A DNA stretch of 61,963 nucleotides, filler included, from Dugesia japonica (Eukaryota), in the NCBI GenBank assembly GCA_001938525.1. It is 6 parts of 6 records of this genome, joined end to end, with 100 filler letters (N's around TTAATTAATTAA, not from the genome) between each part and the next. Parts side by side here need not be neighbours in the genome. Positions count along the whole stretch, not along the records: positions 32,250 to 40,430 come from MQRL01623907.1; 5 more parts are not named here. One strand, given 5' to 3'. The translations under genes and the position numbers were made by a program. The notes under the pieces were generated by a model that searched no databases, was not told the origin of the DNA, and was given only the letters and a program-made list of their open reading frames with translations. Of this stretch, positions 1 through 60,735 are shown in pieces. Numbering within the stretch: the first letter of the stretch is position 1; every line of letters starts with the position of its first letter.

Positions 1-3000
1 TCTTATCGTAATAATAATAGCTATAATATGAATAATAATTATACTTTTGTTTTAATTACTATAATTATACTCTGAATTTTCTTTTAATACTATATAATTA
101 TTCTTATATCTTTACTTTTGTTGGGTCATTAGGCTTTTGATGTTGTTTGATTGTTGTTCGTCTGATTTTTATTATTAAAATTTCTCCTTCTCTTAATGTC
201 GATTTCTGTCTGCGGTTTGATACCTAGTAACCACTGAAATTTGCATTGCTCTCGCTAGCAACACGATCCCCCTTTCCCGGATTCAGCGGAACTATGCTGT
301 ATCCCGTATTGTGCTTTCAATTTATATTTTATTCGANNNNNNNNNNNNNNNNNNNNNNNNNNNNNNNNNNNNNNNNNNNNNNNNNNNNNNNNNNNNNNNN
401 NNNNNNNNNNNNNNNCTGTGACTAATGCCAGATGACTAATGAGTTATACAAAAACAAATACCAATATTTGTAGCAAAAACAACTACATAAAATTGTTCCC
501 CTCTCTTTCTTTCTATTACGATAAGTATTAAATAAATCCTGACATACATTGTTTCCATATTCGGTCACAAACAAACAGATACACAAGTAGCTTTGTGAGT
601 CATTTGGAGTGAGTAACTCGACTAAATGCTGGATAAGTCAGGTGCATTTAATCAATTTAAAAATAATAATAATTTTACAAATTCGTTTGTAAAAACACAT
701 TTTTTTAAAATATCAATATTTACTAAGAAACTGTTGGTGGCCGCACATGAGAACCACTGGTCTAGATTCATCGTCATTCCCTTGTGATTTACTGACCCTT
801 TCTTCGGCTGGTACGCTTTCCAAGGAGTGCGTAGCGTTGCAAAATTGACAGCTTCTCGCTTTGCATATACCTTGATAAAGTCTGCTATGAGACGGTTGGC
901 TTGCTGTAACGCCAACTATCGATTCTTTTGTCTATTGCGCCTCGCCTCTGATTTTGTGATTACTTGTTTTAGCCTCACAATCTCCTACTTGAACTTACGG
1001 TAATTCCCAAACTTGGTTCGTGGCGCTCCTAGTATATCAAAATTTTTCAATGGCATCTCAAATCAAAATATTAGTTTAATATAATGCAAGTTTTAATTTA
1101 TGGGTTAATTATACATTATTATCACTGCTACATGCAAAAATTATATAGTTTGATGTCATTATATAACATAAGTCAATAGATTTTTATTCGTCCTTTGTAT
1201 TTGCTANTTTTATAGAAACTGTCTAATATTGGAAAGTTCTTTTATTTCCACAGATAACCTTGACGCACAAATTTGGGGACCACTGCTCTATATGTCTCTG
1301 TTTCGATATGCTCTACCATACTTTATCAATTATAAGCTGAAATTGATACATTACCGTGCATAATATTTCTCATAGCATATGCAGCTGGACTTGATATTTT
1401 TTTGAATATTATATAAACATACTGTCTGCCATTATTCCCAACTTTATCTAATATTTGCAATGCACTATCAATATAATTAACGTTCTGCACGAGATGCATC
1501 AGCTTTCGTTTTAAGAATTCGATTGGATACGCATTATTTTTCTGAAAATACAATTTTTTTCATCTTCACTTCTTTCATATAATTGTTAGGGTGAAACACC
1601 CGATCATTGGAAAAATAACTCCAAGTACCCCAAATTATGAATTATCCAGAAGTAATAAAGCATGGAAAATCAAACAAATCAATAATCATAGCGATTCATT
1701 AATAAAGGTGAATAAAGGATTAAAGGAAGGTTCAAAAAATTTCAAAATTGTATCAGAGGATGATTATCACCCTGATTAAAGTCAGGATTAAATAATTGAT
1801 TAAAGAAAAATTATGTTATGACGATAAAAACAAGAAAAACACTATAATAATTAAGTAAAAATTATGGAAATTAATTAATTAATTTTCTGCAGAAAAAGAA
1901 AATTAATTTCGAAAAAATCTGTTATTGAAGAATATCTTCGCTCAGAAAAATCTGAAGAAGACCGGGAAAGAAAATCTTGAAAGCTAATATTATGGGGGAA
2001 TTGAATTTCTCATCGAAAAAGCGTTACCATTATGAAGAAGGTCAAGAAAAGGTTTTAAAGATCAGGCTAACGAAAGGCCAGAAAATAAAAAAAACAAAGT
2101 AACTGGAATCACAAGGTGTCCTAAAAATAGGCACCGATCGAGAGGTTGAAAATCATAGCAATTTTAGAAATTTTAGACTTGGTGCCAATAAAAAGCGGCA
2201 GATCAGAAAGTAAAAATAACCGACCAATGTTAACAAAGTTGAGTTGTCATCGAGAAAGTATAAAACCCCCCTGATTTCAGTCAAAGATGACTAAAAAAAC
2301 TCAATCAATAAGTGTGAAATTGCGTATATTAAACCTACATCAAACGGGAACGAAAACCTAGTACTAGTAAGGAAATTGTGAATCTCACTCATTACGAAAA
2401 TTACTTTTTCACGTTACAGTATCAGAGGTAAAAAAGGGAAATTCTCAAGAAGTTAGCAGTTAAAGAATCCGTTAATCATTTGTCCATGTCAGCCGTTGCA
2501 GAAACCAAAAGTAATTTTTATTAAAAGTAATTTATTATTTTTATTCAGTAATATGTTAATCAAATATTTTGGTATAATAAATATTTAACCTGTAATCAAA
2601 TTAGTTGATTCCTTTGATATGAGAAATAATCTAAATAAGCAATAAAAAGTAAACATAAATGCAAAGNNNNNNNNNNNNNNNNNNNNNNNNNNNNNNNNNN
2701 NNNNNNNNNNNNNNNNCTAGTATTATTGAGTATTCATCCGACACAAATAAGGTTATTTATAATTCTTTTCTGGTAGATTATTATCCATAAAGTTTCATGC
2801 GTATCAACCTGGTAGTGTGAGAATCATCAGTGAATTAAATTTACGATCGTTTCGATNTACTTTAACAGTGTTAATTAATTCCAACATGACGAATGCGTTG
2901 TCTATTATTTGTTTTATCCTAGAATAGCGATTAAATTGATGAAGATAATTATAATCATTATAATCATTGTGATAAATTTCTGCTGTCCAAAATAGCATCG

Positions 3001-3394
3001 ATATGACTTAGTTGTTGAATGCTATTGTAAATACTATTAGACTCCGGTAGTTCCACAGGAGAAATAAAAATCCAATTTAGAATACAAACAACTAACTACG
3101 CGGCATCGAATAAGGTGTGCCAAATGTAATTCTCTCTGTAAGCAACAAACTGATGAGTAATCCACTCAGTCTTAATGGCATTAGTTATCAAAGCGACAAA
3201 GTAACTGTTTCCTGTCGTTATAAAAGTAATGCGGAATAATCCGGCAATATAGTATCAGTTTTGTTATTAGCAATACTATAATTTTAATGTGATTAACACT
3301 GTTATTGCCCGAAGTACAGGTTGTGAGAAGATTTGCTTTAGCAATGAAACGGTATTGTTGTTGATTCTCCATTGCCATTGATATCGGAATTACT

Positions 3395-3660
3395 AATACT
3401 ATGATAATTATTATTATTATAAATGTGAATATTATTATCATTGGTATTTTCATCTTCATTTTTATTAATACGCTTATTATTAATATTACTATCACTATTA
3501 TCATTATTACAGTTATCGCTATTATTATTAGTATTAGTGTTATTATTGTTAATATGCTTATCATTATTATAATAATTATTATTATCAATATTATTATTCT
3601 ATTTAACTTTCCGTTTGTTAACGCTAATACCTTTATTATTAAGATAAATAATTAAGTTAA
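3395..3660. repeat. Degenerate (ATT)n trinucleotide low-complexity block
   Basis: ATT/ATC/ACT triplet runs; these generate the spurious poly-Ile ORFs on both strands. Confidence 0.9.
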
Positions 3661-4013
3661 TTCGCTATTATCATTGAAACTTCTCATCATCCATATTAAT
3701 GCTTATCCACAGGATTATTATCCCTGAATTTTATGAATAACCTCCTTGATGAACAATATTCCCGAGTTATATTGATCCATCGATATAATACTTAAATTAA
3801 TACACACATTAATTTTGCCTTTTAAGGGTAAATTGGTCGGATGAAGGGTTCACATAGAGTTAATCACATCATAAGGTTGACACTTCTCTTCCACGGTAAC
3901 TGCAATGTTTATTAAGACGATTAAAATATATAATAGCCATTTAATTGTTAATGATTTCCCTTTTTGTTGTTGTATTTTCCGACATATTATATACAACTCT
4001 CCGGCAGATCTAT

Positions 4014-4160
4014 ATGGAGAGTCGGAAGGTGCGCCGAAGACAACTGCTGGCCCATATTTTGTCATTGCGGAAAATTGAGCACCCTGACGAGACTGACTTG
4101 CAATGTTTTTTAGAAATGTTCCCTCTGGAACATGAGGTAGATTTAGATGCAGGGAGTTGA
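4014..4160 (+). CDS. Small orphan ORF (48 aa, MESRKVRRRQLLAH...) inside the putative LTR
   Basis: ATG at 4014, higher GC than its flanks, TATA-like TATATAA near 3927. No recognisable domain. Confidence 0.2.
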   Translation: MESRKVRRRQLLAHILSLRKIEHPDETDLQCFLEMFPLEHEVDLDAGS

Positions 4161-7100
4161 TTAGAGATACTCGTGTCACGCTGGTGTAATTGTCATTTTT
4201 GTTTCACTTCAAAATAAATTATTGTTTCTATCATTCTGATTTATGTCTTACTCTTAATTTTATTTTAGTGAATATCTATTGGGAAAAAGCTTGGGACCGA
4301 CGGACTCGGTGAGTGGTTTTCAGGCGCCACACTAACTCCTACAATAGGGGAGCCGGCGTGTTAACTGACCGCTCCAACTTACCGGTAATAGAAGCGGTAG
4401 TTGAGAGAATAAGAGATTTTGACGAACGACAGGATTATTATTCGTGACATGTCCCATCGCGAAGTTTATTGACCCAATTTTCGTATGGGAGCCCACCAGC
4501 TCCCCCCTGTGATAAGGGCAGCTATCGATAACTTATTATGGAGTGCCCGGGACCCGGAGAACATAGAAAACTTTGAAAATACCGAAAATGTTCAAACCCA
4601 GGAGAACTGATTTTGCTCGTTGTGTTGTTTTTAATAAATGTCTACTTATGTAATATGATAAAGAGACTTGTTTTGTCTGAATTAGGCGTTCTAACACCTG
4701 TCTTTCGGTATTTTTTCTGGTGGCTTTTCAATTTGGAAATTATTCATCAGGCTTAGTCTTTTTAAGTTTAAATGTCACTAAGGTGACCTTAGTAATTATA
4801 CATAAAAATTATACATTATAGTAATAATTATGAGAACTGATATAAATAATACTATATTTCCTTTTAACAAATATTAATAATTTAAATATTATGTTATTAT
4901 AGTCATTATATTTCTCGTACTCTTATTCCATAATTATTATTCCACGTTTGATACTAAATTCACTGTCTAATGTTTTATTTATTACTTTCTTCATTCATTA
5001 TTTCATATTTCTTTCTTTGCTAGGTTCTCAGTAATTCATTTATCATTTATTTTTGCTTCTTTATATCTCGTACCACTGTTTGTTTCTATTTTAACTATTT
5101 TCTGTTCTTTATTCATTTATAATCTTATTTATTTCACATAGTTAGTTATTTTCTTTCATTTTAATTTCCATTTATTTATTTCCTTTTTAATCCTTGATTG
5201 TTTTTCGAATTTTACTGGTTATCAGCCTTCTTTTTTCTCTTATTTAAGGCCTGTTTCAGCCCAACAATATCTTAAACCGTCGGAATAAAAATAAATATGC
5301 AAAGAATTATTTTTTATATTTACAATTTCAAAGTACCTTGAGAAATCAAATATTCGTTGCGAAAATAAAAATCTAAATTATGTGATGACAACAAATCAAC
5401 CTTTCACAATAAACACACTCTTTTACATGTTACTACTTCTTAAATGAAATTAATTTGTAAGTAGCTAAATAACCAGCTAAATGTGACACGAACATAAATA
5501 CAAGAATTGCCATACACGCATACACAGTGAGAAGAGCGCATTTCCTGCAATTTGATTGGTGCATACTGAGCCACTTTGGCAAAGAATTTTATCATCCCGG
5601 AAGAATGTCACTCAGTGCTGACACATCTACTGATGGGTATCCAGAAAAACTGGTGCTCTTCATATATATCCTCGAAATATGAGGATCTTCAAAAAAATAA
5701 ATTCAGATAAATACATGCTAGTATATGCTTAATAATATATATAAATTTCTAATAGAAAATATTTGTTTTCTAATAAATTTAACAAAAAGTAATGAAACCA
5801 ATTAAACATAAAAGTCCATAAATTGGTGGCACTATTTTATGCTTATTAATGATATTCTCCATAATGATCGTACAAAATCCAATCAAAAGTCGTAACTCGC
5901 AATAAAATCCTAAAGAAAATTGAATATTAAAGAACAATCATTAAATTTGATTCAAAAAGATAACTAACAATTGAATTCGTTATGAATAAAAACCCTATTT
6001 AATTGTCAAAAATTCTCAAAATAAATAGAATACTTTACTTTTGATGGTTTTTTAAAAAAATCAATCAATTTTCAAGAAAAGGATTAATTGATAAAGTAAA
6101 AAACTAAATCATGAAAAAATCATACCATATCAAGATTAATTAAAGCAAATTACAATAAAATTGGAGGGCAATAAATGGTAAAATCCACCAATGATTAATG
6201 TGTTGAGTAAAATTAAAACTTTTCTTAGTTTTAAAATAATAGAAAAATTGTTACATAAATTAACATAAATTGTAATATAAATTAAGTTTCTTTAAAAATG
6301 TAAAGGAAATAACTCATGTTTCCCCATATATTTTTTAAATAATTTTTTTAATATATTTTATGCATAAAATAAATTAATAAATTTTCTGTATACGATAATT
6401 TCTTAAAATTTCTTATTATCTATGTTGGGTTTCTAGGCTTTTGATGTTTGATTTAATTATTTTACAATTTATTTAATAAATCTTTATCCAAATTGTTCTA
6501 GGCGTTATCTGCATGTGTTGTCTTTGTCATCGTGCTACTTTTGCTGCTGATAAAATTTTTGTTTGTCTCTTTGTCTCCTCTAACAATAAATCTTAGCAGT
6601 AATTCTCGCGATCGGCGCACATTTCCATTTGCTAATCATAATTCTACTGCCACATCGCGTTTTAGTCGGATTCGTCTTCATTAAAAGTACCCTTCTGCTC
6701 CAGTTAGTTATTCAATATCACCGGCCGTAAAAACATCCTGCTTTCTCAAATCGGTGCTTTGTAGTCAGTTTTTAGGAATAGTTTTGTACATATCCAATTC
6801 TATCTTACTCTTCCCTGTTATTGTCACTGATAACATCCGTTCGACCCAATGTCATTTTCCTCTGTGATAATATATTTGATCAAATTCTACTTTTATCTCG
6901 TCTAAGTTTTTGTTCTAATCAACTTTTACTTTAAATTTGACTGATATTATCCTGATTCATTTTTGCTTTCATTTCGGCTGTGCTATTATTCTAAATCCGA
7001 CTGATATTATTTTCATCTCGAGTATAATAGTAGCACGATCATAGATATGTCACTCAGATTTAAGGGTTATAACTTGATCGAAACAAAAAATAAAAATTAC

Positions 7101-9532: not shown

Positions 9533-9620
9533 AATAGCAAAATATTTTATAATTTAATGTTTGAGAAATGAATTTGAAGTTATTTCATATAAGCTTAACT
9601 TTATAAATATTTCATTTCAG

Positions 9621-24313: not shown

Positions 24314-24862
24314 ATATACTATACAAATATTTTTTCTAATGATTGAAACAAATATTGACAATTTCTTTTAAGTAGATAAAATTTTATCTATAAATTTATT
24401 TTATCAAGAACCTTTATCATAATAAATTCACCAGAAAGCATTGTCATTATAAATATTTAGCCTTTTTAATAGAAATGTCGTTTATTTATTATTAATATAA
24501 CCTAATTGATTCAGCTGGAATAAATATTTAAATAAAATTGGAAGAGCATAAGATACATTATATAAATATATAAAACTAAAAGGTAAATAAAATACAGTAA
24601 ATAGTTTTGTATAATTTGAAAATTTCACATACAAAATACTCTGCATAATAAAAAATTCCGCTTATAGAGAACAAAAACCACCTGTCCCGCATATATTCTT
24701 ATAAAACACGGTTCATTATAATTTAATAAATAATAAAAATTATATATTGCAATTATAAAATTTATTTATGTTTAAAATATAAAATTTATGAAATTTAATT
24801 TCATTACATTATTACAAAAATAATTTGTAAAGCAATTTAAATAAAGTTAATTATAAAATTAC

Positions 24863-24974
24863 TTTTAAAACTTTAATGACGCACTTCTCATTAGTCACCA
24901 CATTAACGCCTTCAAAAACTTCACTATATTTACCTCGACCAAGTTTTTTAACTATTTGATAATCATCCTGATTT
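24863..24974 (-). CDS. CSNK2A1: Casein kinase II alpha, coding exon 2
   Basis: 112-nt exon, (R)[37 protein letters not shown], with acceptor attcag and donor GTAATT. Contains the GRGKYS glycine-rich loop and the VIK lysine. Confidence 0.95.
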
Positions 24975-25017
24975 CTGAATTANAATTTAACGAGTTTTCT
25001 TCATAAATACGACAAAC

Positions 25018-25112
25018 CTCCACTCTACTTGATATGCCTCATAATCCCAATACTCTCTTGGTCGATTAACATTAACGTCAGCATAAATTCTAGATTTGCT
25101 TGTTACCGGCAT
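25018..25112 (-). CDS. CSNK2A1: Casein kinase II alpha, coding exon 1
   Basis: [31 protein letters not shown], followed by a 43-nt GT..AG intron (24975-25017). Later exons were not found in this contig. Confidence 0.95.
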
Positions 25113-26340: not shown

Positions 26341-27403
26341 TTATTTTGTCTGCATGCTGTGTTGTATTATGTAGATCTCAGATCTCAACAAATGTACCCC
26401 CTTACTAAAAGATGCTCCGTCATCTTTACGGGAATAGAAATCGTGGGCAGGCCATGTCGTGTTATGCTGATAATACTTCATCCATATAGGTTCATTGAAT
26501 ATACAAGCGGGGAATTCATATTCGGGGTTGATACTCGAAGGAGAGGTGGAAGGGTCTCTTGAAAAAATGTTTCTTGGGTTATGCAATCTGGAATATCTTC
26601 TGGTGCGGATCGGAGGAATTCATCTGTCTGCTTATAGTTCAGAAACATTCGTGGATATTTGGCTGTCTGGTAGACCTGTGAACAGTTTCGTATTTCGATG
26701 TTATGGACTAGCAGATTATATCTTTCTCCATTTCTGGTGGCCTCTGTGAATTCTTGGTTAAATTCTAACTTATTTAGGATTTTAATCGTATCAGAGAAAT
26801 GAGATTGTTCCCTTTTAATAACTGAATTAATCTGCTTTTCTGTTTATTAGGAAGGGGTCCATAGCTGATGGTACGGATATCGTCATTGATTTGTTTAACG
26901 GAAATGGAGTCGCGCTGTGTGCATATAGTGAGGAATTCACTAGTGGGATCGCTTTTATCTGGAGTGTCAATTTGGTACATGAAAGGTGTTAAATGAGCAA
27001 ACCTAAGGTTATTATTATGAGGCATTTTTATTAACAAGGTGAGAGGTATAAATTGTCCAATTGTTGGGACTTGTTGATGACAAATTTCGGCACGTACATA
27101 ATTTTGCTGGTGAATTTTGTAAGTCCTACATGAGGGACAAGGGACGATTCTTGATGCTGTGACGTCGAAGTATTGTGTATTGCAGGAAAAACTAAAGTAG
27201 TGCCCACATTGAGCTATTCTTGGCATTATAGGTTTATCATAACATAAAGGGCATATAGGGTTATGATCAACAATCAAGGAGACAAGAGCAATATCGCGCC
27301 AGCTATAGTCAAATGGATTTTTTATGTTTCTGTGTTTCTCATATAATACAATACGGGCATTATTTTGCAGGAATTTCCTTCTGGACTGAATTGTTAGCTC
27401 CAT
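26341..27403 (-). pseudogene. RNF10/Mag2-like RING E3 ubiquitin ligase (retroelement cargo, frameshifted)
   Basis: FLQNN..YSWRDI..CPLC-x11-CGHYFSFSC-x14-CPSC..IGQFIPLTLL parallels RNF10 FLQAN..VNWDFV..CPIC..CGHIFCWAC..CPIC..VGDTITMQLM. After a frameshift near 26800, VYQTAKYPRMFL..DIPDCI parallels the RNF10 FYQAEDGQHMFL..SPEKI block. Confidence 0.75.
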
Positions 27404-27502
27404 ATTCTTAAAGTATATATATTAAATCACATACTCATAACATAACGACGTTAATACTAATAATTTATATATACATATATGTGTATGTGTAATCAGCCTA
27501 GA

Positions 27503-29067
27503 TTATTTTAGTCGATCGATGGACACATTTAATAGATTGTTATCTGTTTTATCTATGGCTAATGTGAGTAGTGCGCCATCTTGTGTCATTGCAACTTTGT
27601 TAAATAGCGTGTTTTCTACTATGAATTTCAACTTCTTGTTGCCATTTTCTTCTATCTTTGTTAAATGGATTCTCTTTTTTCCATACCTTAGGTAAATATC
27701 AGCATTTGGTGTCGTGTGAAATCTAAATTCTCCTCTCTTCTTGTTTCTTTTATTTGATGTTTCTTCCCAACTAACTTCTGGTTCAGTTAAATATATACCC
27801 GGTTCTGGTCCTATTGAATCGTCACTCTCACTATATGGTACATATACACCATCTTCTCTAACTTGGTCTACCGTAAGATCCTTCAATTGTTCGTCGTCGT
27901 TATCAGATTCTGTAAGATCTATACTGCATCTTTGTTCTACCACCCCTTCCATTTCTCCGTCTCCCATATCAGACCAATATTCAGTACTGCTGTTTAGCTC
28001 TCCTTCATCAAAATCACAACTTTCCTCATAGTAGTGAATTGGAACTTTTTTCGACTTCTCGATTACCCACTGTTCATCCTTTTGACCTTGGATCGCAAAC
28101 TGTCTTTCTTCTTCATCCCTTTGTCGTATCACTTCTTCATCTTCAGATTTGGGATCGTATCCAATATTGCCATTTATTTCCCTTTCGTCTAACTTGATAT
28201 CGTCTGAGTCTAATTTGACTTTTATATCTATGTCTTCCTCGGATTCCGAATCCATTATCCATCGAATACTTATTGGCTTAACCACTTCCCTAATTGCAAT
28301 TTCCTGTATAGTGTCCTGATCTCCTTCATCTATTGATATATTACTGGTTAGTATCGGTTGCAAGGAATCTTCCCATTCCTGTTGGCTAGACATCTGTTTG
28401 TAAGTTATCCTGATTAGCGTCGTTTTTTTTGCTGTTGATTCATACTTCGTATTTCTAGCTGTATTCAACACATCCTTTATAATATATTCGTGTCTTAATG
28501 ACTTAAATACTGCTTCCATTAAATTAAGGAATTTAAGCTTCTTGACATTTGGAGTGTATTGTCGTCTCCATTTTTCCTCTGCGAGATCTCTAATGCCAAT
28601 TACGTATGAAGGCTTATCAAATTTTTCCCAATATTATATCCTACTAGTATTTTTCCATAAATTAGTTGCCTTGCTTTCAATATCAATGGGTAAGCATCTT
28701 TGTATTGTCGAATTTTTTCCTGATCACATCCTGTGATATGATAGTCAAAATGTCTAATTTTTTCTCTTGGACTGAGAGTTTCAACCATTAAAATAGTTCC
28801 ACTGCTTGACATAATAGTTATCTCTACTAACTGTGGGTTAGAATACACATCTTTTACTGTTCTCATATCAATACATACCGTAAGTTGATAAATATCTTCT
28901 GCCATCAATATTGCATATTTTATAAATGACGTATAGTTAAGTAGATCTATATAGGAAACAGTGCAGTGTCCCCTAATGCTCGTGAAAGATGGAAAAGGTA
29001 TAGGTATCCGATCATGGTATATGATTTCTACTGCTAAAACCGCTGGATATTTTGTATGGCTATCCTA
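27503..29067 (-). pseudogene. DEDDh (REXO4/ISG20-like) exonuclease-fold protein with acidic tail (cargo, frameshifted)
   Basis: The frame is open from about 29064. VCIDMRTV..LSPREKIRHFDYHITG..LIYGKILVGYNI..(frameshift near 28605)..IRDLA..DVLNTAR runs into the 338-aa acidic ORF. Confidence 0.7.
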
Positions 29068-29128
29068 ATATTATTTATATTTTTATTTATTATCTCTTCA
29101 ATTATTAGTGAGGTGTTGTTAACTACAG

Positions 29129-29686
29129 TTATTTCATTTTTGTTATGCGTGAATTTGATAGGGTTTTTGTAACATGCATTCGAATGGCTTTAATAATTCT
29201 TTTCCCTTTTTTCAATGCATTTTCAGGGTTCTTGGGGATCTTTATATACCCTATTAATTGTTGAAGAGTGTATCGCTTTGCTTCCTGAAATCGTATCATG
29301 ATTAAATCCTTATCAAAGGTGTTATTTTTTAATGCATTAGGGATTTTTGCCACCTCATTAAATGTTTCTATTCTGGACTCGGTTTGTTTCTCTTTAAATG
29401 TAAAGTTNNNAATGGTATCATAAAATTGTGGGATACTTTTTGTGGTAAAGGTAGAAGATGAAGGCATATTTGTTGTGTCACTCTCTGTATGTATGTTTGT
29501 GTCTGTTTGATTATTAATTTTTTGTTTGTTGTTACTTTTGCTTTTATTATTTTGTCTTGCTATATTTTCTTGTGTCTGCATGTTATGTCGTATAATTGAT
29601 TGATTGTTATGTATGAATATTTTTGTTTGTACTTTGTATTGTATTAACTGTTGACTGACTGCTGCAAATGCGGATTGTTCGAGCAT
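29129..29686 (-). CDS. Orphan accessory ORF (185 aa, N/T-rich linker, basic C-terminus)
   Basis: ATG at 29686 (MLEQSAF...); AATAAA about 40 nt after the stop; co-oriented with pol. Confidence 0.45.
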   Translation of the reverse strand: MLEQSAFAAVSQQLIQYKVQTKIFIHNNQSIIRHNMQTQENIARQNNKSKSNNKQKINNQTDTNIHTESDTTNMPSSSTFTTKSIPQFYDTIXNFTFKEKQTESRIETFNEVAKIPNALKNNTFDKDLIMIRFQEAKRYTLQQLIGYIKIPKNPENALKKGKRIIKAIRMHVTKTLSNSRITKMK

Positions 29687-29759
29687 TTCTTCTAAAACAA
29701 ATGAATAATTAATGATTGAATTTAAGGACTGGTTAGTCCTATATACTGCTACAGGTATT

Positions 29760-30702
29760 AGTAGCTTATTATATAAATGAAAATATATATAAATAATAAT
29801 ATGAAACATTACAATTATCATTTTGAAATTTACCGCGAGGTGTTCAGACCAATGTCCATAGGACAAAATTTTGGAATATGCGGGGTATTGCGCGCCAATA
29901 ACGCTGCCTCTTCTACCTGTATCGCTTATGTATTTGTATTAATGTAGTTATGAAAGCGAGGAGGATTCTCAATCATTCTCAATATTGAGAAAGGATGATG
30001 TAATATTTTTATGTGAAATGTTTTTACTGTTGTGGTGGTAATCCATAATTGTAGGATTTTATGTCGCAATTGTTGATGATCGAACTTGATGTTATTATTC
30101 AAAGTTTTTCTATTTCTTTTCGAATTTTTGTTTATACTCATATTTGTTGTCATTTTCACTGTGTAGGTATTATGATGAATAGTTGTTTCTATTTGTGGTT
30201 TGGTTGTACTCGACCTTTCTTGTCTTGTAAGAATAGTCACAGATCTCGTCTTTATTTGTGATTTGGTTGTACTCGACGTTTCCTGTTTTTTTGAAGGATT
30301 CATTAACTGTCTTTGTGGTATAATCAGTTTCTTTGGTAATGTGGTAAATATATACTGTCTCAATAATTTGACTCTGCTCATTCTATACTGTATTCAAATT
30401 CTATATGCTGTGTCAGCTTCTAGTCCTTTTATCTCTATCTGGCCTATCCCTTTGCTCAATTTTATTGATATTGCTGTAAAAACATATCTCTTCTTCGTGG
30501 TGTATTCATTTACTCTGACATATTCGTTTACTTGCTCTTTTATTGTTGCAGCGATTGTTATATTATTCGGTGCCTTCAGTACGATACTATTGGGATATTT
30601 TATCCTTTCTATAATACCAAATCCTTCTTCTTTCTCCAGTTTAGCTGCACCTACTGTTAATAATGTCACTAAAGTTAGTGCAAAGAGTGGTAATGCATTT
30701 TG
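29760..30702 (-). pseudogene. Env-position ORF: signal peptide, FN3-like domain, Thr/Ser-rich stalk and hydrophobic tail
   Basis: In frame with KYNLRSE*: NALPLFALTLVTLLTVGAA, then PNSIVLK...IEIKGLEADTAYRI*I...FTTLP (FN3-like), a 21-aa S/T repeat, and terminal CFILLFIYIFIYIISY. Contains in-frame stops. Confidence 0.55.
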
Positions 30703-32149
30703 TCATTCTGATCGAAGGTTATATTTGTGTTGTTTTTCAGGTTCAATTTCTGNNNNNNNNNNNNNNNNNNNNNNNNNNNNNNNNNNNNNNNNNNNNNNNN
30801 NNNNNNNNNNNNNNNNNNNNNNNNNNNNNNNNNNNNNNNNNNNNNNNNNNNNNNNNNNNNNNNNNNNNNNNNNNNNNNNNNNNNNNNNNNNNNNNNNNNN
30901 NNNNNNNNNNNNNNNNNNNNNNNNNNNNNNNNNNNNNNNNNNNNNNNNNNNNNNNNNNNNNNNNNNNGTTTGAATTTTACTTTTAGATTGGCTTGTTTAT
31001 ATACCTCTTGTAGTCTTTCTTGCATTTTTGTAACGTAATCTAAATTATCCATATATTGTGACACAATTGGCTCAAATGTTATATCTATCGGCATATGATT
31101 TTGTCTGAGGTACACAAGATAAAATGGGGAATATCCCGTGGCTTCGTTCTCAGTTGTATTATGTATGAACAATGTTGACTTAATAAATAGATCCCAATCA
31201 TTTTGATGCTTATTTACGAAAAATGCCAATCTTTTACATAATGTACTGTTAAATCTTTCAACTAACCCATCAGTTTGTGGGTTATGAGCCGTCGTATTTA
31301 TTTTTTTAATATCAAACATATTTGTTACTCGTTGTATGACTTCATTGAGGAAACTCTTTCCCCTATCTGATAGCAGCTTTCTTGGCGCTCTATATTTGTA
31401 TATTATCTTTTCAACTAATAACTTTGCTACTGTATCTGCTGTTTCATCTTTTGAAGGAAATGCCTCTGCCCACTTTGTAAAATAGTCATTTATTGAATGA
31501 ATGAATAAATGAATAAATAGTCATTTATTCATTCATTGAATACTAATATATGTTTGTTGCCTTTTATAGTTGTTGGTAATTTGCACAAAAAATCAATTGC
31601 ACATGTTTCCATTGGTGAGCTAGGTATTGGCATTGGCTGTAATGGGACTTTGGTTTTTGTTCTTGTATTCTTTCTTGTGGCACAGATACTACATGCTTGA
31701 CACCACTTCTTTACATCCTCTTTGATATTAATCCCAATAGTATTTTTGTAGTAATCTTGACGTGGTTTTTCTACTAAACAGGTGCCCTCCGAGCGCTCCA
31801 TCATGATATTGCAATAGTAATAATTGTTTTAGAGAATCTGGTACAACCATCAGATTTTACCCTAAATTATTGTACATAAGTAAATTCTTATACATTTTAT
31901 ATTTAGTATTCTTTTCTTGAATCATCATCTTTTTAATTTCTTGTATTTGTTTATCTTTAGTTTGTTCCTCCAGAAATGTTTTTGGGTTTTTTCCCGCCAT
32001 AACGATTGACATCATTTCTAATATATTTATTTCTGGAATTCTTGGTAATGCATCCGCATTTTTATTTGCTCTACCTAGCTTGTATATAATACGTATGCTC
32101 ATATCTTGAATTTTCATTGCCCACTTCAGTATTCTACTGGATGCATCTT
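30703..32149 (-). pseudogene. Gypsy pol C-terminus (end of RNase H, integrase Zn finger and DD35E core)
   Basis: RILKWAMKIQD..NKNADAL, CQACSICA, CAIDF, LLSDRG, NPQTDGLVERFN, TGYSPFYLVY, and KYNLRS after an N gap. Confidence 0.93.
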
Positions 32150-32249
32150 NNNNNNNNNNNNNNNNNNNNNNNNNNNNNNNNNNNNNNNNNNNNTTAATTA
32201 ATTAANNNNNNNNNNNNNNNNNNNNNNNNNNNNNNNNNNNNNNNNNNNN
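32150..32249. other. Artificial contig-joining spacer
   Basis: TTAATTAATTAA at 32194-32205 between two 44-N runs. Confidence 0.97.
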
Positions 32250-33289: not shown

Positions 33290-34350
33290 ACCCATGTTCC
33301 GTTATCCTATAACATGGAGAAGTTTCGAAGATACTTTATCCTGAGAAATGGCGTTGGCACATTTTTCGGCTCTGTGAATATGGAAACAGATCAGTTCTTG
33401 TTTTTTGTGTTATCTATTTCTGAATCAATTTGGATATATATCGCCATTTTGTTTGTGTGAGGAAACGAATGTTGATTTTGCATTAGTTATACAGATGTGC
33501 TCAATTTTTTTTACATATTTTTTCTTATTTTGTTCAAGCATTTTTGATAGCATAAAACATTCGGTTATACAACAAATTCATTTTCCTGAAAAACGTCTTC
33601 GATTGAAGCATGACAAGGCGCATTATCAGTTACTAATAAAAGTTTTGATTGACACATATTTTTAGAATTCCAAAGGCAATGGTGTACAAATTCTTTGGCT
33701 TCAAGATTCTTAAAAGATCTATTTCTAATTTTGTGATAATCCAAACTAATATTACGCATACATCCACTAACATGAATATTTGCTCCTTTACAGCCAGGAG
33801 AAATATGTATACTATAACTTCCTATTTTTAGATCAACCCTTTCTTCTTGATATAAATAAATTGAAGTTGGCCTTATCCAGGTAATAAGGATATTTTCTGC
33901 TTGGTATTCTTAAAGTGGTTTAGCACAATTACGTCTTTTAGTTTTATTTTCCTCAGTGTTTGCTTTTTAAGATTCCCTGTGAATAGCTTTTAATGTAAAC
34001 AACATTTAATTTAAGTGTTTCCGTAAACATTCGATAGAAACGTCAATTTGGTGATTTTCATGAAATGTTTGCTTTTAAAAAGCAGTATGTTGAAGAATAA
34101 CTTTGAAAGAATAAAAGCAAAAATTTTTTGAAAATCACTAAATTGAAGTTATGTTAAATTGCAAAATTCCTTCGACCACATTGTTTTTCGTTTTCTTGTT
34201 TTCTGATTCATCGATAATTGGTGGATCTTTTCACTCCTAAAGTATTTGCAAGTGATCTATAATCTCCAGTGTTATTATATAATTCATAAAAGTTGTTTTT
34301 AATATTGTCAGCTTTTGCTTTTGCAATGTACATCATTTTTCATATACAAG
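33290..34350 (-). mobile_element. Decayed pogo/Tigger-like transposase
   Basis: KLLLVTDNAPCH motif within a fragmented DDE-like coding stretch. Confidence 0.55.
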
Positions 34351-34899
34351 GATGTCTTGTATTTATAGTTTAAGAATATACTGTTAAAAGTTTAATAAGT
34401 TTTTTAAACGTATCTATTAAATAAATGTGTGTATCTGTGTGTATTATATTTTCTAACCTTTTTCTATNNNNNNNNNNNNNNNNNNNNNNNNNNNNNNNNN
34501 NNNATGCTTGTAAATCTATTTTAATTATATTATAGGCAGCTAATCAGAATACAATAAATTATTATAAGGTTAGTATTTTTACCTTATTAAACTTTAAACA
34601 GTATAAAATTAATAATATAATATTTAATTGATTTTTTAAAACCATATTATTTGAAAATATAAGAAATCTAACAGTTTTGCAATGCATCAGATATATCGCT
34701 CATATACAATTGCGTTAAATCAGACGGATGTACGATTTTAATGGTATTTCTTTGCTATGAGATGTTTTCTAACTCATTCTCATTCTGTGCATTTGATAAA
34801 AATTATTGAATATTTCATTTTTATTTTATATTTAAATGTTTAGTTGTCAATTTTCAACTTCAAATTCACAATGTAAAGTGGAGAAGTTATAGATATGAA

Positions 34900-35567
34900 A
34901 TATTCGGTATCAGACAATTGCTGATTGAGATGCTGTTGTTTATAATGAAAAGCGATATTTGGTAACAACATTTGGAAGGATTGAACGTCAATCCACTCCA
35001 TGAAGCTCAATATGAAGCTGACTCCACCATTGTTTGAAGAACCTCGTGATTTTCAGCAAGTAATGCAATGTCATCAGCATATGGTAGTATAGAGACACGA
35101 GAATGACTACTCTGAATTCCAGCATGTATGATTACGTTGCATTGTTCAAGAAGAGGGTTTAAACCATTATTGAAAATAAGAATTGAGATAGAACAGATTT
35201 GTCTGACCTTTTTAGAAATCAGAATGAAGGACGTTGAAGTGAATTGGAAAATATTTGTAGAAGAACATTGGTGTTATATTGATTGAATAAGTTTCGTAGT
35301 GTGACTGTCCATATCCATTCGACTGAGTATGCTCGTGATATGGGAAACAGAAATAGAATCCTAGGGATCAGAGATGTCAAGGTAGGCCAGATGAACCTCA
35401 TTTACCGGATTTCTCTTTGAGTTTTCAAAGAGTGCTCTGAAGATGTTATTGTGTTCTATGCATTCTTCAGATTAGATGATGGAGGATCCAAAATAAGCAG
35501 TCCTCTTGGTCGGATTGAGATAGGTGAGATTTCCCATGAAACTACTGTATAAGATATGGGTCGACTA
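34900..35567 (-). mobile_element. Non-LTR retrotransposon reverse transcriptase fragment
   Basis: RPIS..ECIEH..LAYLDISD..KVRQICSISILIFN..PYADDIALLA..SGLTFNPSKC. Confidence 0.88.
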
Positions 35568-36652
35568 GCGGCGTGGAGTTGCTGTAATTCCTTAATTGCT
35601 GAGAGCAGCTCGATCAACTGTTGTTGTTTTTGCTTTATTTCAATTTCCCGGTCGTTACACATGTTTCTTAACATGATGATTTCCTTCTCTAGTGCAGCTT
35701 TATACGGTTCATTGTACTCTAATGATAATTTATCGATTCCGGCTTGCAACCGTTCTCGGTTGGCCAAGCTGGTTAATAATTGATTTTCTAACCGTTTTTT
35801 TTCGAACTGCGAATTAAATAACTCCATTCGTAGAATTTGGGTATTTTCCTGTTTAATTGACACTTGGGTTTCTAATTCCCTTTTCTTTGGTTCGATCTGC
35901 TCGAATTTATTTTTCCAATCGCGAGCCTGTTTTATCGCATTTGTTTTGGCTCGATTTTCATCCAGGTTCCTATTTATTAACTTTTAATGTGCATTGCAGG
36001 ATCGTTTTTTAATTTCAAGTTCTTGTCGAATTTTCTCTACCTGATTTTCCAGTTCGTTATTATAGTTTTGTAATTCTAGGTTTAAGAGGGCATTTATTTT
36101 CGAATCCAATTTCCATTTTAAGACTTCGGGTACAGATGTGAGAGATTGGTTCTGAATTTGGAAGATAATTTTAGATAGTCTGTCTGTTTCAAATTTGAAT
36201 GCCATTTCTATTCTATTTTTTGACATGTTCCATTCCAGTCTGCATGACGTTTCCAGTATGTCTTTTTATTTTAATTATTTTGGTTGATTATTTACATCTA
36301 AGTTCAATAGGAAAGGGCAAGTGAGAAACAATATTTTATGATCCCTTTCTGGGTTATCATTCGTTCTCCATTTATGCAGATTTCTTTGTCAGTAGATACA
36401 TTTCACTCGGTCTGGATGATCTAGAGTTTCAAAGAAATAGAATTATTTTATAGAATAGAATTTTCAGTTCATGGCGGTTGACCTCTCCCTTAATGGGGGG
36501 TACACACCCACAAACCTTGGTATTCGGGTTCAATGCTTTTCCCTTATCTTATATAAATTTATTAGAGCTGATACTACTAGGAACATTTACTACTAAAACA
36601 TTTATAAGTTGCTTAAAACACTCGGAACGAGCCATTGCTCCGGATCGTCCAT
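35568..36652 (-). pseudogene. BIR (IAP repeat) domain plus long coiled-coil protein
   Basis: FYFFETLDHPDRVKCIY*QRNLHKWRTNDNPERDHKILFLTCPFL has exact C-x2-C-x16-H-x6-C spacing (36400-36317, second Cys is TGA). It is in frame with ORFs 36226-35984 and 35863-35456. The start at 36652 is tentative. Confidence 0.8.
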
Positions 36653-36682
36653 TGTAAAGTTAAACGCTGCATAATCATCCTC

Positions 36683-36985
36683 CTAGTTCCACTGAATCCA
36701 AGTTGGGTTACCGATCTGACGGGAAAGATCTGCTATATACTGCTTTAAAAAATCGATCTTCCTCATCAGCAGCTGTTTGTTTTCGTCCTCTAGCGCCTTA
36801 GTTTGGACCGCTAAATCGTTTTGTTTTTTAACGATTAAGTCCAACTTTTTAATAAGTTTGTCACGCTGGCCAAGATGTTTTAAGAGAGCCCTATCTACTT
36901 TGCGCTTCAGATGGCGTTCCAACAACAAGCGGCGCAGGATCCGGTGGCACCTTCGCAAGCTTGTGAGAAAAAAAATGCGTGGCAC
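36683..36985 (-). CDS. Small basic coiled-coil ORF
   Basis: 100-aa open frame with heptad-like L/K/E pattern. No 5' ATG; preceded by a splice-acceptor-like ctctttatttAG. Confidence 0.4.
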   Translation of the reverse strand: MPRIFFLTSLRRCHRILRRLLLERHLKRKVDRALLKHLGQRDKLIKKLDLIVKKQNDLAVQTKALEDENKQLLMRKIDFLKQYIADLSRQIGNPTWIQWN

Positions 36986-37101
36986 TAAATAAAGAGTATA
37001 ATTAAGTCGGCTAAAACCAGTGTTAAAAACAGAGAAGCAAATTAGAGTTGATACAATTAAAACACTTTATTAAAGACAGTCGAAATCATAAACGCGGTGG
37101 T

Positions 37102-37479
37102 TCATGAGCGGTTGGTCTGGGTACCTTTATCTACCAGGAGTGGGGGTAAAGGCATGGCCGTCTTCAACTTCAGGATATTCTCTATTAGCTGATTTTCACG
37201 CTCTTGGTAGGACTTGATGAATTCAGTGAGGGTTTCGACTTGCGCTTTCCATACCCTTTCCTGTTTCTGGGTTGCTTCCATCTCAGATTTGAAAGTCAAG
37301 CACTTCCGTTTATATCGTTTGACTTTAGCCTCGGCGGTCGCGGTTTCTACTTCCCACCGCCGTTTCGCGAGCCTGTATAAATCCCACATAAGCTCAATGT
37401 CTTCGTTGGATTCGCTTAATTTCTTATTTGGCGTTTGGGATCTGTTCAAGGAAGAATGCACTGAAATTACAAACACCAT
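37102..37479 (-). CDS. Small coiled-coil ORF
   Basis: 125-aa open frame with an ATG start and AATAAA about 30 nt downstream of the stop. Confidence 0.45.
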   Translation of the reverse strand: MVFVISVHSSLNRSQTPNKKLSESNEDIELMWDLYRLAKRRWEVETATAEAKVKRYKRKCLTFKSEMEATQKQERVWKAQVETLTEFIKSYQERENQLIENILKLKTAMPLPPLLVDKGTQTNRS

Positions 37480-37591
37480 GAATAAAGTCCGAATCTTAAC
37501 TTATGGATAATTTAGTAAAAGAAGATAGGCGGGCTACTTGATAAAAGAAAAATGAAGAGTTGGTTAACAACGTTTATTCTACGTAACAACA

Positions 37592-38020
37592 TTACAGGGA
37601 AACCTCTGTTATTTCTTCCTCGGTGTTTTCATTGTTGCTATTAGAAGCCTCATTTCGTGCACTCCAAAGGTAGTTTTGAACAAANGAGGATAATTGAGAA
37701 GTGGAAGGTAATCGATTCGTGGTAACACCGATTAAGGAAGGTCCATCATGCCACAGACGCTCTACCTGAGGCACAACGGTATTTCTCTCAAAAGAAAGTG
37801 CAGCTGGAGGAAATGCAACCCAATCTCGTCTAGGGCCACACCAACTGTAATAGGCACTCCTTTCCGTCGCATCCCACTGTCTTTCATCTGCTGCGTGTTC
37901 GGTGGAGATGTTGGAGCGATCGACTAGAACACCGGCGTCACGATTGTGCGGGTTTTGGTACCTTTTAAATACCGTTCGGCCTGAATGAATATCCAGACTC
38001 ACCTCCCACTTGAATTCCAT
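37592..38020 (-). CDS. Orphan ORF (142 aa, MEFKWEV...)
   Basis: TATAAAA at 38094-38100, ATG at 38020, AATAAA at 37573-37578. Confidence 0.5.
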   Translation of the reverse strand: MEFKWEVSLDIHSGRTVFKRYQNPHNRDAGVLVDRSNISTEHAADERQWDATERSAYYSWCGPRRDWVAFPPAALSFERNTVVPQVERLWHDGPSLIGVTTNRLPSTSQLSXFVQNYLWSARNEASNSNNENTEEEITEVSL

Positions 38021-38919
38021 AATGCCGGTTCTAAAGTGACGACTAGTGAGGCTATATCTATTGACCAAATGGTATGAATAGACCTGATGAGTGTTTTATA
38101 ATCAAAATGAGTTCTAAAATTTATTTTATAAGATTAGTATTTAAATTAACACCAAAGAAACAAATATATTTTTTGGATGACATGAATACACAAATGGTTC
38201 AGAGGGATTTATTATTCCTCATCTATATCCACTTTACATTCGAGAGGGAACATCTCAACGAATCACTGGAGATCGGTTTCGTCGGGGTGTTCCACTTTGC
38301 CCTTCGTTAAATAGTGGGCTATTAATTGTTTCAGGCGAACGATTCGAAGCTGTTTCTTTATTTGACGGAGTGTGGCTCACAGTATTGCTGGCATTATCTA
38401 GGAAAGAAAAGAAAAAATCTAAAATTATCACACAAAATCATGGTGTGGATTTCAATTTCCTCTACAAGAAGATTTTTATGTTACTGCGGTACACTATTAA
38501 CGAGATGGTTTGGTCCCGTAACAAGGCATTAATCCATTAAATTTATCGCAAATTAAAGATGCGCCATGTATTATTCGATAACATCCCCTTCTTCATAATA
38601 AGGATTTTTAGGGCTGAGCACATCATTCTTTGGCATTTCTTATCCTAATAATCAGATAATAGGAAAAAATTATAATATTGGCGAAGATTTTACTCATCAT
38701 AATGATGGCATTAATAATACCTGGTCACTAACAGGATTCATAAATTACACTAACATGAAAAAGTGATGATCATCTAATTATATGATGGTGACTATTCCAG
38801 GTGAATGATTTTATTAGTAATAACCATTGATAATACCAGCCAAAACAATAATGATGGTATCGATTTTAATACTATTTATGATGAGGATGGTACTAATAAT
38901 CATAATCCATAGAATACTT

Positions 38920-39030
38920 CCATCATAATATTAATAATAATAATCATGATAATAATATTGATAATAATCATATTGATAATAATATTAATAATAATAATAA
39001 CAATAATAATATTAATAATAATAATATTGA
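38920..39030. repeat. (AAT)n low-complexity block
   Basis: Direct AAT triplet run. Confidence 0.9.
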
Positions 39031-40430
39031 TTGGCTAGTTATAACGATATAAAAGAAAATAACAATAACTCAGATTTCTTATTAATTTGATTTTGTGCGG
39101 TGATAGTTGCTTAGCAGCGAGTGTTAATCCTGTTATTTTTATTTGTGTTGGTGTGTTCAGTCTTTTATGTTGGTGTGTAGTATTGAGTCAATCCAATATC
39201 TACTATGAGGTTGTTTTCTTGTTATATGAGAACTGACTGATGTTATAAATTTACTTATGAAACTTTATTTAGTGTATAATGCCTAATTCATTTACAGCGT
39301 TATGGAATTTATCGTAATTTATAGATGACAGGAAATTTATTTGATATAGTAACCATTCATTTGGGATTTCTGGCTCGTTAGTCAGAGGCGATGACGAAAA
39401 TTTCTCTGTCGATGAAGATCAGTGGATTGTCAAGAAACTCTACTTTGTTGGAAATTATGTACTATTGAACTTTCGGGGTATATTTATTTTACTCAACAAT
39501 GATGGTGAGTTATATTGCGTTGATGTTTTCAATAAAGATTTGGAGTTGATTTTCGTCATTAATTGCTTTACTATGTCACCCGATGCTGATCATAACTCGT
39601 TGTCATAAACTCCACCAATTAGAATTCTACAATCCGAATCTGGTTTTTTATTAATTCCTGTAGCATGCAACATTCTAATGTGATGGTAATTACTCATATT
39701 CGATAACAAAATTAGTTTAAGAGCAAATGCTTTCTGAAAATTCTTAATCCAATTTTAATCAAATGCCAAATGNNNNNNNNNNNNNNNNNNNNNNNNNNNN
39801 NNNNNNNNNNNNNNNNNNNNNNCAATTTTAATCAAATGCCAAATGATTACCAATGTAGCTGTAACATAAAATAATTTTAGTTAAAATAAAAAAAAAATTT
39901 TAATCATTTATGAACTAAGTTTTATTAAAATAAATATTATTCATCATCATCAAAAATGATACATTTATCCAATTAGAATAAAATTTTACTTTTAATTAAA
40001 CTTGTTTCTGCAACGGGGAAATAGTGAAAAGCTGGAATGGATTACTGGATAGGCAAATCTATTCTTTCTTTTATCTTGAGGAATAAGCTGGTTTACCGTT
40101 TAGTGATTACTATAGTTTCTTCTTTCAATAACGTAGAAGCACTGGATTTTCTAAATTGAATTGTTTAAAGGTGAGAAATCTTTCCGTTTTCAACTAACTA
40201 CTTGATTTAATGGTGACTGAGGATAGTGAAAGTTGTATTTTCAATTTTCTAAAACTCGAATCGATATCCTTATATTAATACGGAATTCAAAGTTTGTAGT
40301 TTTATGATTAGAGTGTTTTGCTGAGTTTTTTCATTAAATCTTCTAAATTCGGGGGCTCCTTTTATAGGGTTTGACTTACACCCCAACTTGTTCTTGATTT
40401 GCTGATTATTTTTGGATCAGCCTTTTCCTG

Positions 40431-48136: not shown

Positions 48137-49187
48137 TTACAACTGTTCAATGTGACCTCCTTCAACTTTCTCACAAAGTTCTACACGATTCAACAGCTCC
48201 TTCTGTCAATTGTTGTTTTTATTGTTTGATTTAAATGTTTCTAACGCTGCAAAAATCCTCTCGACCAATTCCTCTTTATTTTTTGGTTCTCCAATTTCAT
48301 AAGCTTTGGATTTTTTGTGGCACCATATGAAGAAGTCTAATGGATTTAGATCTGGTAATCTTGGCGGCCACTCCACAGGTCCATTTATTCTAATCCAACG
48401 TCTTTGAAAGTGCACATCCAAAAAATTTATCACCACCTTAGCTCGGTGGGATGAACATCCATCTTGCATGAACCACATTTTTCTTCTTATAATAAGTAGA
48501 ACATTTTTGAGTAATAATGGAAGCTCCAATTGCAGAAATTGTTGATAAATATTGGTGTTCAAATGACCACAAGACGCGATACCCGATTTTAAATTGTCCG
48601 ATCAGTCCTGCCCATACGTTTACTGAGAATCTTTTTTGAAAATTAGTTTCTCTTATCGCATGTGGATTTTCTGCTGCCCATACATGTTCATTATGAGAAT
48701 TGTTGATTCCGTCCCTTGTGAATGTAGCCTCATCGCAGAATAGAACAGTTGGAATCAATTGTGAGTGCTGATTTAACCATTTGCCAAATACTACTCTTTT
48801 TTCAAAATCACCTTGGTGAAGCTGTTGAATGTATTTAAAATGATATGGATAAAGGTTTTCCTCACGTAACCTCTGTCAAACGGTTGTTTGCTTAAGTCCA
48901 GTTACAGCTGACATTCTTCGTACGCATGATTTAGCATATTTATTTACTTTTTTCAATATGACCTCAGCTCTGTTTCTTCTTTGTATAACTCTTTCGCTGC
49001 ATTCCTTAGGGAAACATCCTTTTTCTTTAAGTGACGCTAAGACACGGCAAAATGTTCCACAATCAGGTAACCTGTGGTTAGGAAATCTTTCGCCATACTT
49101 CTTTCTAGGTACGGCGAAATTACCGTCACAGTATCCATACAAAAATGTCATATCAACGTACTCCTGATCGGAAAATTGAAATGGCAT
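48137..49187 (-). pseudogene. Near-complete DD41D (rosa/Visitor) Tc1/mariner-superfamily transposase
   Basis: MPFQFSDQEYVDM..VLFCDEATF..VNVWAG..FMQDG-(41 aa)-D in WPPRLPDLNPLDFFIW..GGHIEQL*, with stops and one frameshift. Confidence 0.92.
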
Positions 49188-50313
49188 TATGTCTAATCTA
49201 TAATATTCAAATGATAATAAAATATTCAAATATTAAAATACTTTAATTATTAATAAAATTTATCTAATTTTAAAATGGTGCGACAATAATATATTTTTGT
49301 TTGGAATATTCAAAAAGCACTTTTAATAGTTTGAATATTAATAAATATTAAATAAATACAACGTTTAATAAATATTAAATAAATATAAGTATTAATAAAA
49401 ATTAATTATTCGATCCTCAATATCTTGTAAATGGTTGATAATCGGACCAATGTTTATAAGACATTTTTTGCTATAAATGACTCAAGGAAGCTAACTCCCC
49501 GAATAGTGTATATGATATACATTTCAGTGTTGTTTATATCTTTACCTTACGCAACATACTATTAAAAACATTAAAGAAAATTTAGATTATCAAAAAATAT
49601 TATTGGAAAAATGTTAGATTTAAATAATCTTTTATTACAGAATTAGTTTTGGTATTTCATAGTTACTACTTCCAAACAAATTGCACTGAACTTACGAAAA
49701 TAACATTAACGTGAAGGATGGGTCTTTTTACTTGCGGAAATATTTTTCAAAATTTTAAATGATCATTAAAAGTGATTTCAAATTTTTAAAAAATCATAAA
49801 AATTTTAAATGAATTTTAATTTAATAATTCATAACAATTTTTCTTTTTAAATGAATGTTTATTTGTAACTATTGTTAATCAAAAATATATAANNNNNNNN
49901 NNNNNNNNNNNNNNNNNNGAAAAAGTAATTTAAAATATAAACTTATTCAATATTCTCACGGGCTTATGTTTTTTATTTTATCTTTTCATTGATGTTCCAC
50001 AAAATTATAATTTCAATTTTTGATTTCACAACAACAGCCCATAAAATAGTCAATGCTTGTTTATTTATTAGACAATAAAATGAAATTAACAAATTCTATG
50101 AAAAAAAATAAGCAAAGAAATTCATCGTTAATATTAACTTTTTAAAAATATTATTTAAATTAATTATATAAATATAAGTTATTTTTTATTTGATTAATAA
50201 GAAAATAACATATTTAAATTTTAAATTTGTTAAATTAAGAAATATTATTTTATTTTTGAACTTAAAATTTTCGAAATTTATTTAATTTATTTTTTGTTTG
50301 CGAAGAAATAATA

Positions 50314-60061: not shown

Positions 60062-60735
60062 TGAGAAATTTGCAAAGTTAAACTAACATAATAAATTGTT
60101 AAATAATCCTTGTCAATAGTCCAAAAGAATTTTGATTGAACAAGTTCGTAAGAAAATCCTTGACTGCAGGAAATAATTCAAATAATAAATTGGATACTGC
60201 TGAAATTTTTTGTATGCAATGAATCGGAGGAAGTTGACAAACATTCACTATTACACACAAACATGAATTAACTAATATTATCGCAAAGAATTGACTGTAC
60301 ACACCGATTAAATGTTAGCAAAATATAGAGTCATGATTATTTTTCTACCCCTTTATTTTTATAACATTGTACATCACTTTGTATTTAAACCATGTTTCTA
60401 AATTTTGGGATTCTTTATAATTATTTGAAATAATTGGATCAGTGGCGAAAGTTTTTTTAATGTTATGAAATTCTGCAGAATTCTAATATAAATTATTTGA
60501 AATCAATTATTATTTTACACTAAAATAAATTTGCACTTTTAAATATTTTCAACATATATTGTTGCTTGCGTTTGTGTCACTTGATTCCTGATACTATTTA
60601 TGCATTAAACAGAAATTCCAGGGCATTTATTGTTCATAATCCAACTTTTTCTGTTATAATGTACTTGAAAGTTGTAATTATAATGATATATTTAGCTATA
60701 ATGATATATTATAATGATATATTTAGGAGCAAGAG

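Follow-up and report, generated by a model that had tools for sequence, protein, structure and literature searches.

Structure of the BIR-coiled coil locus

The window analysed here, a stretch of 61,963 nucleotides (filler included) joined from six records of the Dugesia japonica genome assembly GCA_001938525.1, carries on its minus strand the remains of a gene in which a BIR (inhibitor-of-apoptosis) domain is followed by a long predicted coiled coil, next to an array of small open reading frames (ORFs), a second and diverged copy of which lies elsewhere in the window. The features of both are collected in Table 1.

Table 1. Features of the BIR-bearing stretch and of the second ORF-array copy, in window positions.
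Feature	Position	Strand	Basis
Non-LTR (LINE) reverse transcriptase fragment	34965..35566	-	RVT_1 Pfam match, 49.1 bits, 34965-35426
Predicted alpha-helix of ~230 aa, in frame with the BIR and likely a coiled coil; internal stop at 35986	35567..36262	-	AlphaFold, heptad and charge scan
BIR domain, C-terminal two-thirds	36308..36448	-	Pfam PF00653, PDB BIR matches
In-frame stretch upstream of the BIR core, six stops	36449..36652	-	Translation, lobe search
Open frame of 127 aa in the BIR frame, short coiled-coil-like segment	36683..37066	-	ORF; weak coiled-coil Pfam matches below cut-off
Small helical ORF, 132 aa, followed by AATAAA at 37071	37102..37500	-	ORF, Pfam scan
ORF of 167 aa without a known family, AATAAA behind it at 37578; homologue at 4265-4462	37592..38095	-	ORF, Pfam, tblastx
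Decayed ORF where summed contig depth is highest within the array; 64% aa identity to second copy	38206..38385	-	Contig depth, tblastx
AT-rich tandem repeat within the element; second-copy counterpart at 3389-3598	38925..39031		Repeat scan
Decayed coding-like sequence reaching the scaffold gap at 40431; 40285-40428 matches 2197-2340	39030..40428	-	Translation, tblastx
Second ORF-array copy, diverged and decayed, gene order kept	2197..4462	+	tblastx E 3e-23; blastn 72% at 4071-4149

An earlier note on this DNA, made from the sequence alone, had described a hidden BIR domain fused to a coiled coil and had proposed a Pfam search on the repaired frame. When the minus frame starting at 36652 was translated with an X for each stop codon and searched, PF00653 was matched with 31.7 bits and an E-value of 2.3e-07 (cut-off 22.9) at residues 69-115 of that frame, corresponding to 36448-36308, with an alignment spanning positions 26-69 of the 70 in the profile. 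A custom profile of 346 cellular BIR domains gave 31.5 bits at the BIR, its runner-up site in the window gave 2.1 bits, and its top score on 20 block-shuffled windows was 4.1 bits. Since the Pfam score is above its cut-off and the custom profile is far above the shuffles, the BIR domain on the minus strand is genuine. The DRVKC, W..NDNP and CPFL motifs singled out in the note are all found in this frame. The exact C-x2-C-x16-H-x6-C pattern that it also claimed, however, does not occur in any of the six frames of the whole window: three of the four zinc ligands are kept (Cys 36400, His 36340 and Cys 36319), and the codon at the position of the second Cys (36391-36389) is a stop. Compared with 359 cellular BIR cores, the conserved columns retained are D81, V83, C85, L92, W95, D99, P101, H105, F109, C112 and F114, among which L92, W95 and D99 are those that we take to line the BIR peptide groove. 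The N-terminal lobe of the domain, with its conserved Arg, was found in no minus frame, where the best score was -0.7 bits against a median of 46 for real BIRs; in run X7 the match of three contigs ends at 36463, where they continue with a different sequence, so that relatives differ around the N-terminal lobe.

The predicted coiled coil of about 230 residues reported in the same frame held up, as AlphaFold, run on the single sequence with X at the stops, predicted helices at residues 131-168, 176-221 and 225-362 with a pLDDT of about 70-87 over most of their length; the same model left the BIR unfolded, with a pLDDT below 50. The four stops that the note had counted are indeed those from the BIR core downstream (36391, then 36277 and 36268 in the linker between BIR and helix, then 35986), but the stretch for which they had been given, 35568-36652, holds 11 stops in the BIR frame, where the two remaining frames have 32 and 25. 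Farther upstream, 4305 of 4332 units of contig depth in run X1 disagree with the window at the stop codon 36685. The stop between the open frame at 36683-37066 and the BIR frame is thus probably peculiar to this copy, and the open frame is likely the N-terminal part of the BIR gene. At its other end the gene abuts, as had been noticed, a LINE reverse transcriptase fragment, which truncates it at a junction that we place at about 35570. A genomic contig of run X5 covers 35411-36419 and crosses this junction, which is thus not an assembly artefact. No RING domain was found in the preserved part of the gene, but its true C-terminus, lost to the LINE truncation, may have carried one. At 35716-35718, contigs of three runs from the same locus carry a 36-base insertion, so that this dead copy is polymorphic.

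Two ways of reading through the stops were considered and rejected. An alternative genetic code is at odds with the use of all three stop codons and with a host exon that stays open for 546 codons in the standard code, and introns that skip the stops are at odds with the position of one stop within the zinc motif and with the few splice-like signals found there. With a zinc ligand, the open frame and the 3' end all lost, the copy cannot function: it is a pseudogene, unable to make the ancestral protein.

Homologues of the BIR protein

No full-length homologue of the protein was found. In a word-indexed search, one of 3150 candidates matched, an abalone IAP aligned over 11% of the query, and none of 4498 longer proteins of 729-2080 aa did so, a size range that leaves a polyprotein of 4,900 aa outside. 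A HMMER search of 1.84 billion representative proteins gave 212 matches; the best stretch was centred on the BIR in the 150 listed, and in no protein among the 1.84 billion did the match take in the BIR together with the coiled coil over their full length. Of the ten clusters examined, three carry a gene or species name, namely two bryozoan XIAP-like proteins and an unnamed bivalve protein. Most of the IAP-like proteins fetched (138 of 151) have at least two BIRs, bearing in mind that whole-sequence scores favour multi-BIR proteins, and in none of the 151 did a crude scan find a comparably long helix, the best reaching 72 residues against 118 for the query. Related loci were found neither among viral contigs (IMG/VR) nor among metagenome contigs, and the protein collections searched with the BIR frame returned no Burro sequence. 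Our literature search likewise retrieved nothing on a planarian transposon with a BIR-domain inhibitor of apoptosis or on captured IAPs in Ty3 elements, the name GYPSM1 appeared in a single paper, and the available excerpts of PMC11410931, PMC9241645, PMC8905726 and PMC8532177 contain nothing on a BIR of Burro.

The earlier note had called the protein survivin-like. Survivin binds H3pT3 and INCENP/borealin, and on that model the cargo would be a survivin mimic, its BIR reading the N-terminus of mitotic histone H3 while its coiled coil tethers particles of the element, or subunits of the chromosomal passenger complex, in stem cells undergoing division. The succession of one BIR and a long helix, the lack of a RING in the preserved part and the survivin chains matched in the PDB (E 0.003-0.01) are all in keeping with such a mimic, as is a helix unparalleled among the fetched IAP-like proteins. 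We nonetheless regard it as quite improbable. In single-domain comparisons with solved structures, in which scores are weak and their differences small, survivin comes last with 20-21 bits, behind the cIAP BIRs (23-25 bits) and ML-IAP (26-27 bits); the relatives mostly have several BIRs and the top matches that carry a gene name are XIAP-like; and survivin measures 142 aa in total, far less than the helix of our protein. The survivin-like reading is therefore one that we do not favour. A broader version, in which an undescribed planarian element or virus other than Burro carried a stand-alone coiled coil-BIR-coiled coil protein that acted as a survivin mimic, tethering the element to the mitotic chromosomes of neoblasts or hijacking the chromosomal passenger complex, seems to us highly improbable.

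Copy number and expression

When contigs of four public runs were aligned to 35250-40430 at 80% likeness, 4233, 3159, 2951 and 580 of them matched, the fourth run carrying a second organism label. Few of the 4233 contigs of run X1 are close to this copy: 298 are at least 99% alike, 671 fall between 95 and 99%, 1479 between 90 and 95%, and 1785 below 90%. Over 35769-36979 the summed depth in this run ranges from 544 to 7445, whereas the contig that represents this locus itself has a depth of 12.2. The sum amounts to 2850-4972 over most of the coiled coil and to about 7100-7400 upstream, and falls to only 53 in the final 170 bases of the helix. The lowest value of the range, 544, lies over the BIR core and is 5-14 times below the neighbouring bins, and this dip weighs in part against the mobile-element reading given below, since the BIR may be missing or strongly altered in many members of the family. 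Although a sum of contig depths is no direct measure of copy number, these values suggest that the BIR core is present in tens of copies and the sequence on either side of it in hundreds.

The same data bear on whether a host gene for an IAP or survivin left a processed pseudogene here, among repeats by chance; the earlier note had named a single-copy pseudogene of a host gene as the case that would undo its proposal. In favour of such an origin, the BIR is of cellular type, the database matches listed are all cellular-looking IAPs, and the depth over the BIR core is well below that of the flanks. Yet the coiled coil and the upstream part in the BIR frame are themselves highly repeated (depth 2850-7445), none of the 1.84 billion proteins searched matches BIR and coiled coil together at full length, and the neighbours form a conserved multi-gene array; with thousands of contigs, mostly less than 95% identical, and a second copy of the array in the window, a single-copy host pseudogene is not what was found, and we hold this origin to be extremely unlikely.

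Expression was assessed in raw RNA reads of three runs labelled as the same species, sampled at about 25, 25 and 6 in 100. At 85% likeness, 42, 4 and 8 reads fell on 34510-39400, none of them at least 99% alike, and the depth over 35494-36641 did not exceed 0.46. Given that no positive-control gene was run alongside, this near-absence is weak evidence of silence. Segments upstream of the BIR are also covered by contigs of a fourth run, one that we merely guess to consist of RNA. In Schmidtea mediterranea, BURRO1 is silenced by a PIWI protein, according to an excerpt of PMC8532177. An effect of this particular copy on host stem cells, as had been imagined, is contradicted by its broken state and by the next to no RNA reads that it attracts.

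The ORF array and its second copy

The ORFs upstream of the BIR gene are intronless and run head-to-tail on its strand, and two of them end just before an AATAAA, which suggests that they are separate small genes. The segments shared with the second copy differ in how they have diverged. At 38206-38385, the best conserved ORF, the differences at codon positions 1/2/3 number 17/9/34 and are thus mostly at the third; the second ORF gave 35/23/40, and a third segment gave 25/24/25, that is, no coding bias. The profile of 346 BIR domains, run over the window, revealed no BIR gene in the second copy. No ESM Atlas relative was found for 37688-38095 (best 0.77), and PHROGs yielded nothing meaningful for 16 ORFs and frames. 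The summed contig depth of run X1 peaks at 28046 over 38191-38363, where many contigs stop matching at 38295; neither Pfam nor PHROGs matched this interval, and its depth profile suggests a short coding motif common to several related families.

A gene array of this kind, made of small intronless head-to-tail ORFs, two with an AATAAA behind them, resembles that of a DNA virus, and one could think of a decayed Maverick/Polinton (adintovirus-like) or other endogenous DNA virus with the BIR gene as an accessory IAP, all the more so as homologues of IAP and Bcl2 have been reported in adintoviruses, according to excerpts of PMC8502044. We consider this origin unlikely. The frames scanned, in an element that is incomplete here, gave no match to PolB, ATPase, capsid or protease; the array showed no terminal inverted repeat in the window; IMG/VR holds no relative; and the planarian BIR cargo that has been published belongs to Burro (excerpts of PMC6431247), the excerpts of PMC8502044 making no mention of flatworms or planarians.

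Other features of the window

The minus strand at 26344-32150 holds the 3' end of a Gypsy pol, with an integrase zinc finger and rve core below the Pfam cut-offs, and then a series of accessory ORFs. One of these (29132-30702) has a hydrophobic start and a stretch rich in Thr and Ser; another (28603-29064) is likely a DEDDh exonuclease, a lead only, as its Atlas score of 0.91 to RNase_T clusters is accompanied by no Pfam match; a third (27506-28633) is acidic; and a fourth (26777-27421) contains a C3HC4 RING with 27.9 bits. This region may represent another cargo-rich Gypsy family, exonuclease and C3HC4 RING ORFs not being listed for Burro in the excerpts of PMC6431247. Decayed fragments of a Tc1/mariner-like transposase were found at 33300-34460 (from translation), 7648-8181 and 48206-49232 (DDE_3 and HTH matches, both below the cut-off), and two repeats about 85% alike, at 16928-17394 and 54267-54813, match GIY-YIG weakly and are possibly Penelope-like. 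Short exons at about 24650-25100 on the minus strand appear, from their translation, to resemble casein kinase II alpha. Two ORFs of the plus strand separated by a gap (9599-10363 and 10872-11540), the first of them hydrophobic, matched neither Pfam nor PHROGs and are possibly exons of a host membrane protein. A large exon of the host Na/Ca exchanger at 58445-60082 (minus strand) is 85% identical to Slc8a-1 of S. mediterranea, the next flatworm being at 62%, in keeping with a planarian host other than S. mediterranea.

Discussion

Taken as a whole, the locus is probably a pseudogenised accessory gene in a decayed, high-copy planarian mobile element, likely a giant Ty3/Gypsy LTR retrotransposon of the Burro type. 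That the gene is cargo of a mobile element had been proposed in the earlier note and is supported by the high-copy repeat in which it lies, by the second, diverged copy of the array and by a host gene that is closest to S. mediterranea. The link to Burro, which had also been put forward there, stands in part. According to excerpts of a review (PMC6431247, through which Jurka 2007 and Grohme et al. 2018 are cited), Burro/GYPSM1 is a Gypsy-like element of more than 30 kb, known from three dugesiid species at copy numbers in the thousands; it carries AIR1, Smc, MATH, BIR, ankyrin and BCL2-like motifs, env homology and tandem repeats, and the same excerpts describe an accessory ORF lying upstream in D. 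tigrina and fragments in decay, with stops, in D. japonica. BIR and Smc are therefore published for this element, but we found no Burro pol gene physically linked to our locus. In the BIR-bearing stretch between the scaffold gaps, no LTR pair, gag, reverse transcriptase of its own or integrase was found, nor did the gapped window as a whole yield an LTR pair, and the ORFs and frames scanned, which cover the mere 5 kb or so of the element that are present, gave no ankyrin, MATH, BCL2-like or env match. A Gypsy integrase does lie at 30970-32150, on the same strand and 3.3 kb downstream of the BIR array beyond a scaffold gap; with the LINE fragment, the Tc1-like fragment and the gap in between, a physical link between the two is not shown.

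A groove on the surface of BIR domains accepts the exposed N-termini of caspases and of IAP antagonists, and IAPs carried by viruses serve to keep infected cells alive. By analogy, the ancestral protein of the planarian element would have been a short coiled coil-BIR-long coiled coil, encoded by a small gene of its own within the head-to-tail array and resembling a viral IAP without a RING. Its coiled coil might have oligomerised the protein while the BIR groove bound the exposed N-termini of caspases or IAP antagonists, so that it would have acted as an oligomeric decoy that delays death; a cell expressing the element could then have survived long enough for the element to replicate. Burro elements have been proposed to interfere with apoptosis and ubiquitination in their hosts, an idea that the review considers to deserve experimental confirmation (excerpts of PMC6431247). 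Our analysis adds a layout of the cargo, in which a BIR sits between two predicted coiled coils in what is apparently its own small gene, within a family that is abundant and diverged. The BIR-coiled coil gene may already be present in the figures of the primary Burro paper, and one reading of the review would perhaps place the BIR within the Burro polyprotein of 4,873 aa (excerpts of PMC6431247).

The protein can be set against several known systems. With survivin (BIRC5) it shares one BIR followed by a helix, but here the helix is several times longer and a coiled-coil-like segment also precedes the BIR. With XIAP, cIAP, ML-IAP and the baculovirus IAPs it shares the CCHC spacing and the D-V-C, L-x-x-W, D-x-P-x-x-x-H and C-P-F columns; it differs from them in its single BIR, in having no RING in the preserved part and in the helix of some 230 aa behind the domain, and in this copy a stop takes the place of one zinc ligand and no N-terminal lobe can be detected. 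The IAPs of adintoviruses and Mavericks (excerpts of PMC8502044) are alike in being intronless IAP-like cargo of a multi-gene mobile element, and unlike in that PolB, capsid and inverted repeats were not found here. Burro/GYPSM1, finally, differs in that our BIR stands among small ORFs, to which we found neither gag-pol nor an LTR linked, and in that ankyrin, MATH and BCL2 were not seen here; by description it agrees with our element in its planarian host, its high copy number, its cargo of BIR and Smc-like proteins (the latter likeness judged from the predicted helix), its tandem repeats, its accessory ORFs and its decayed copies.
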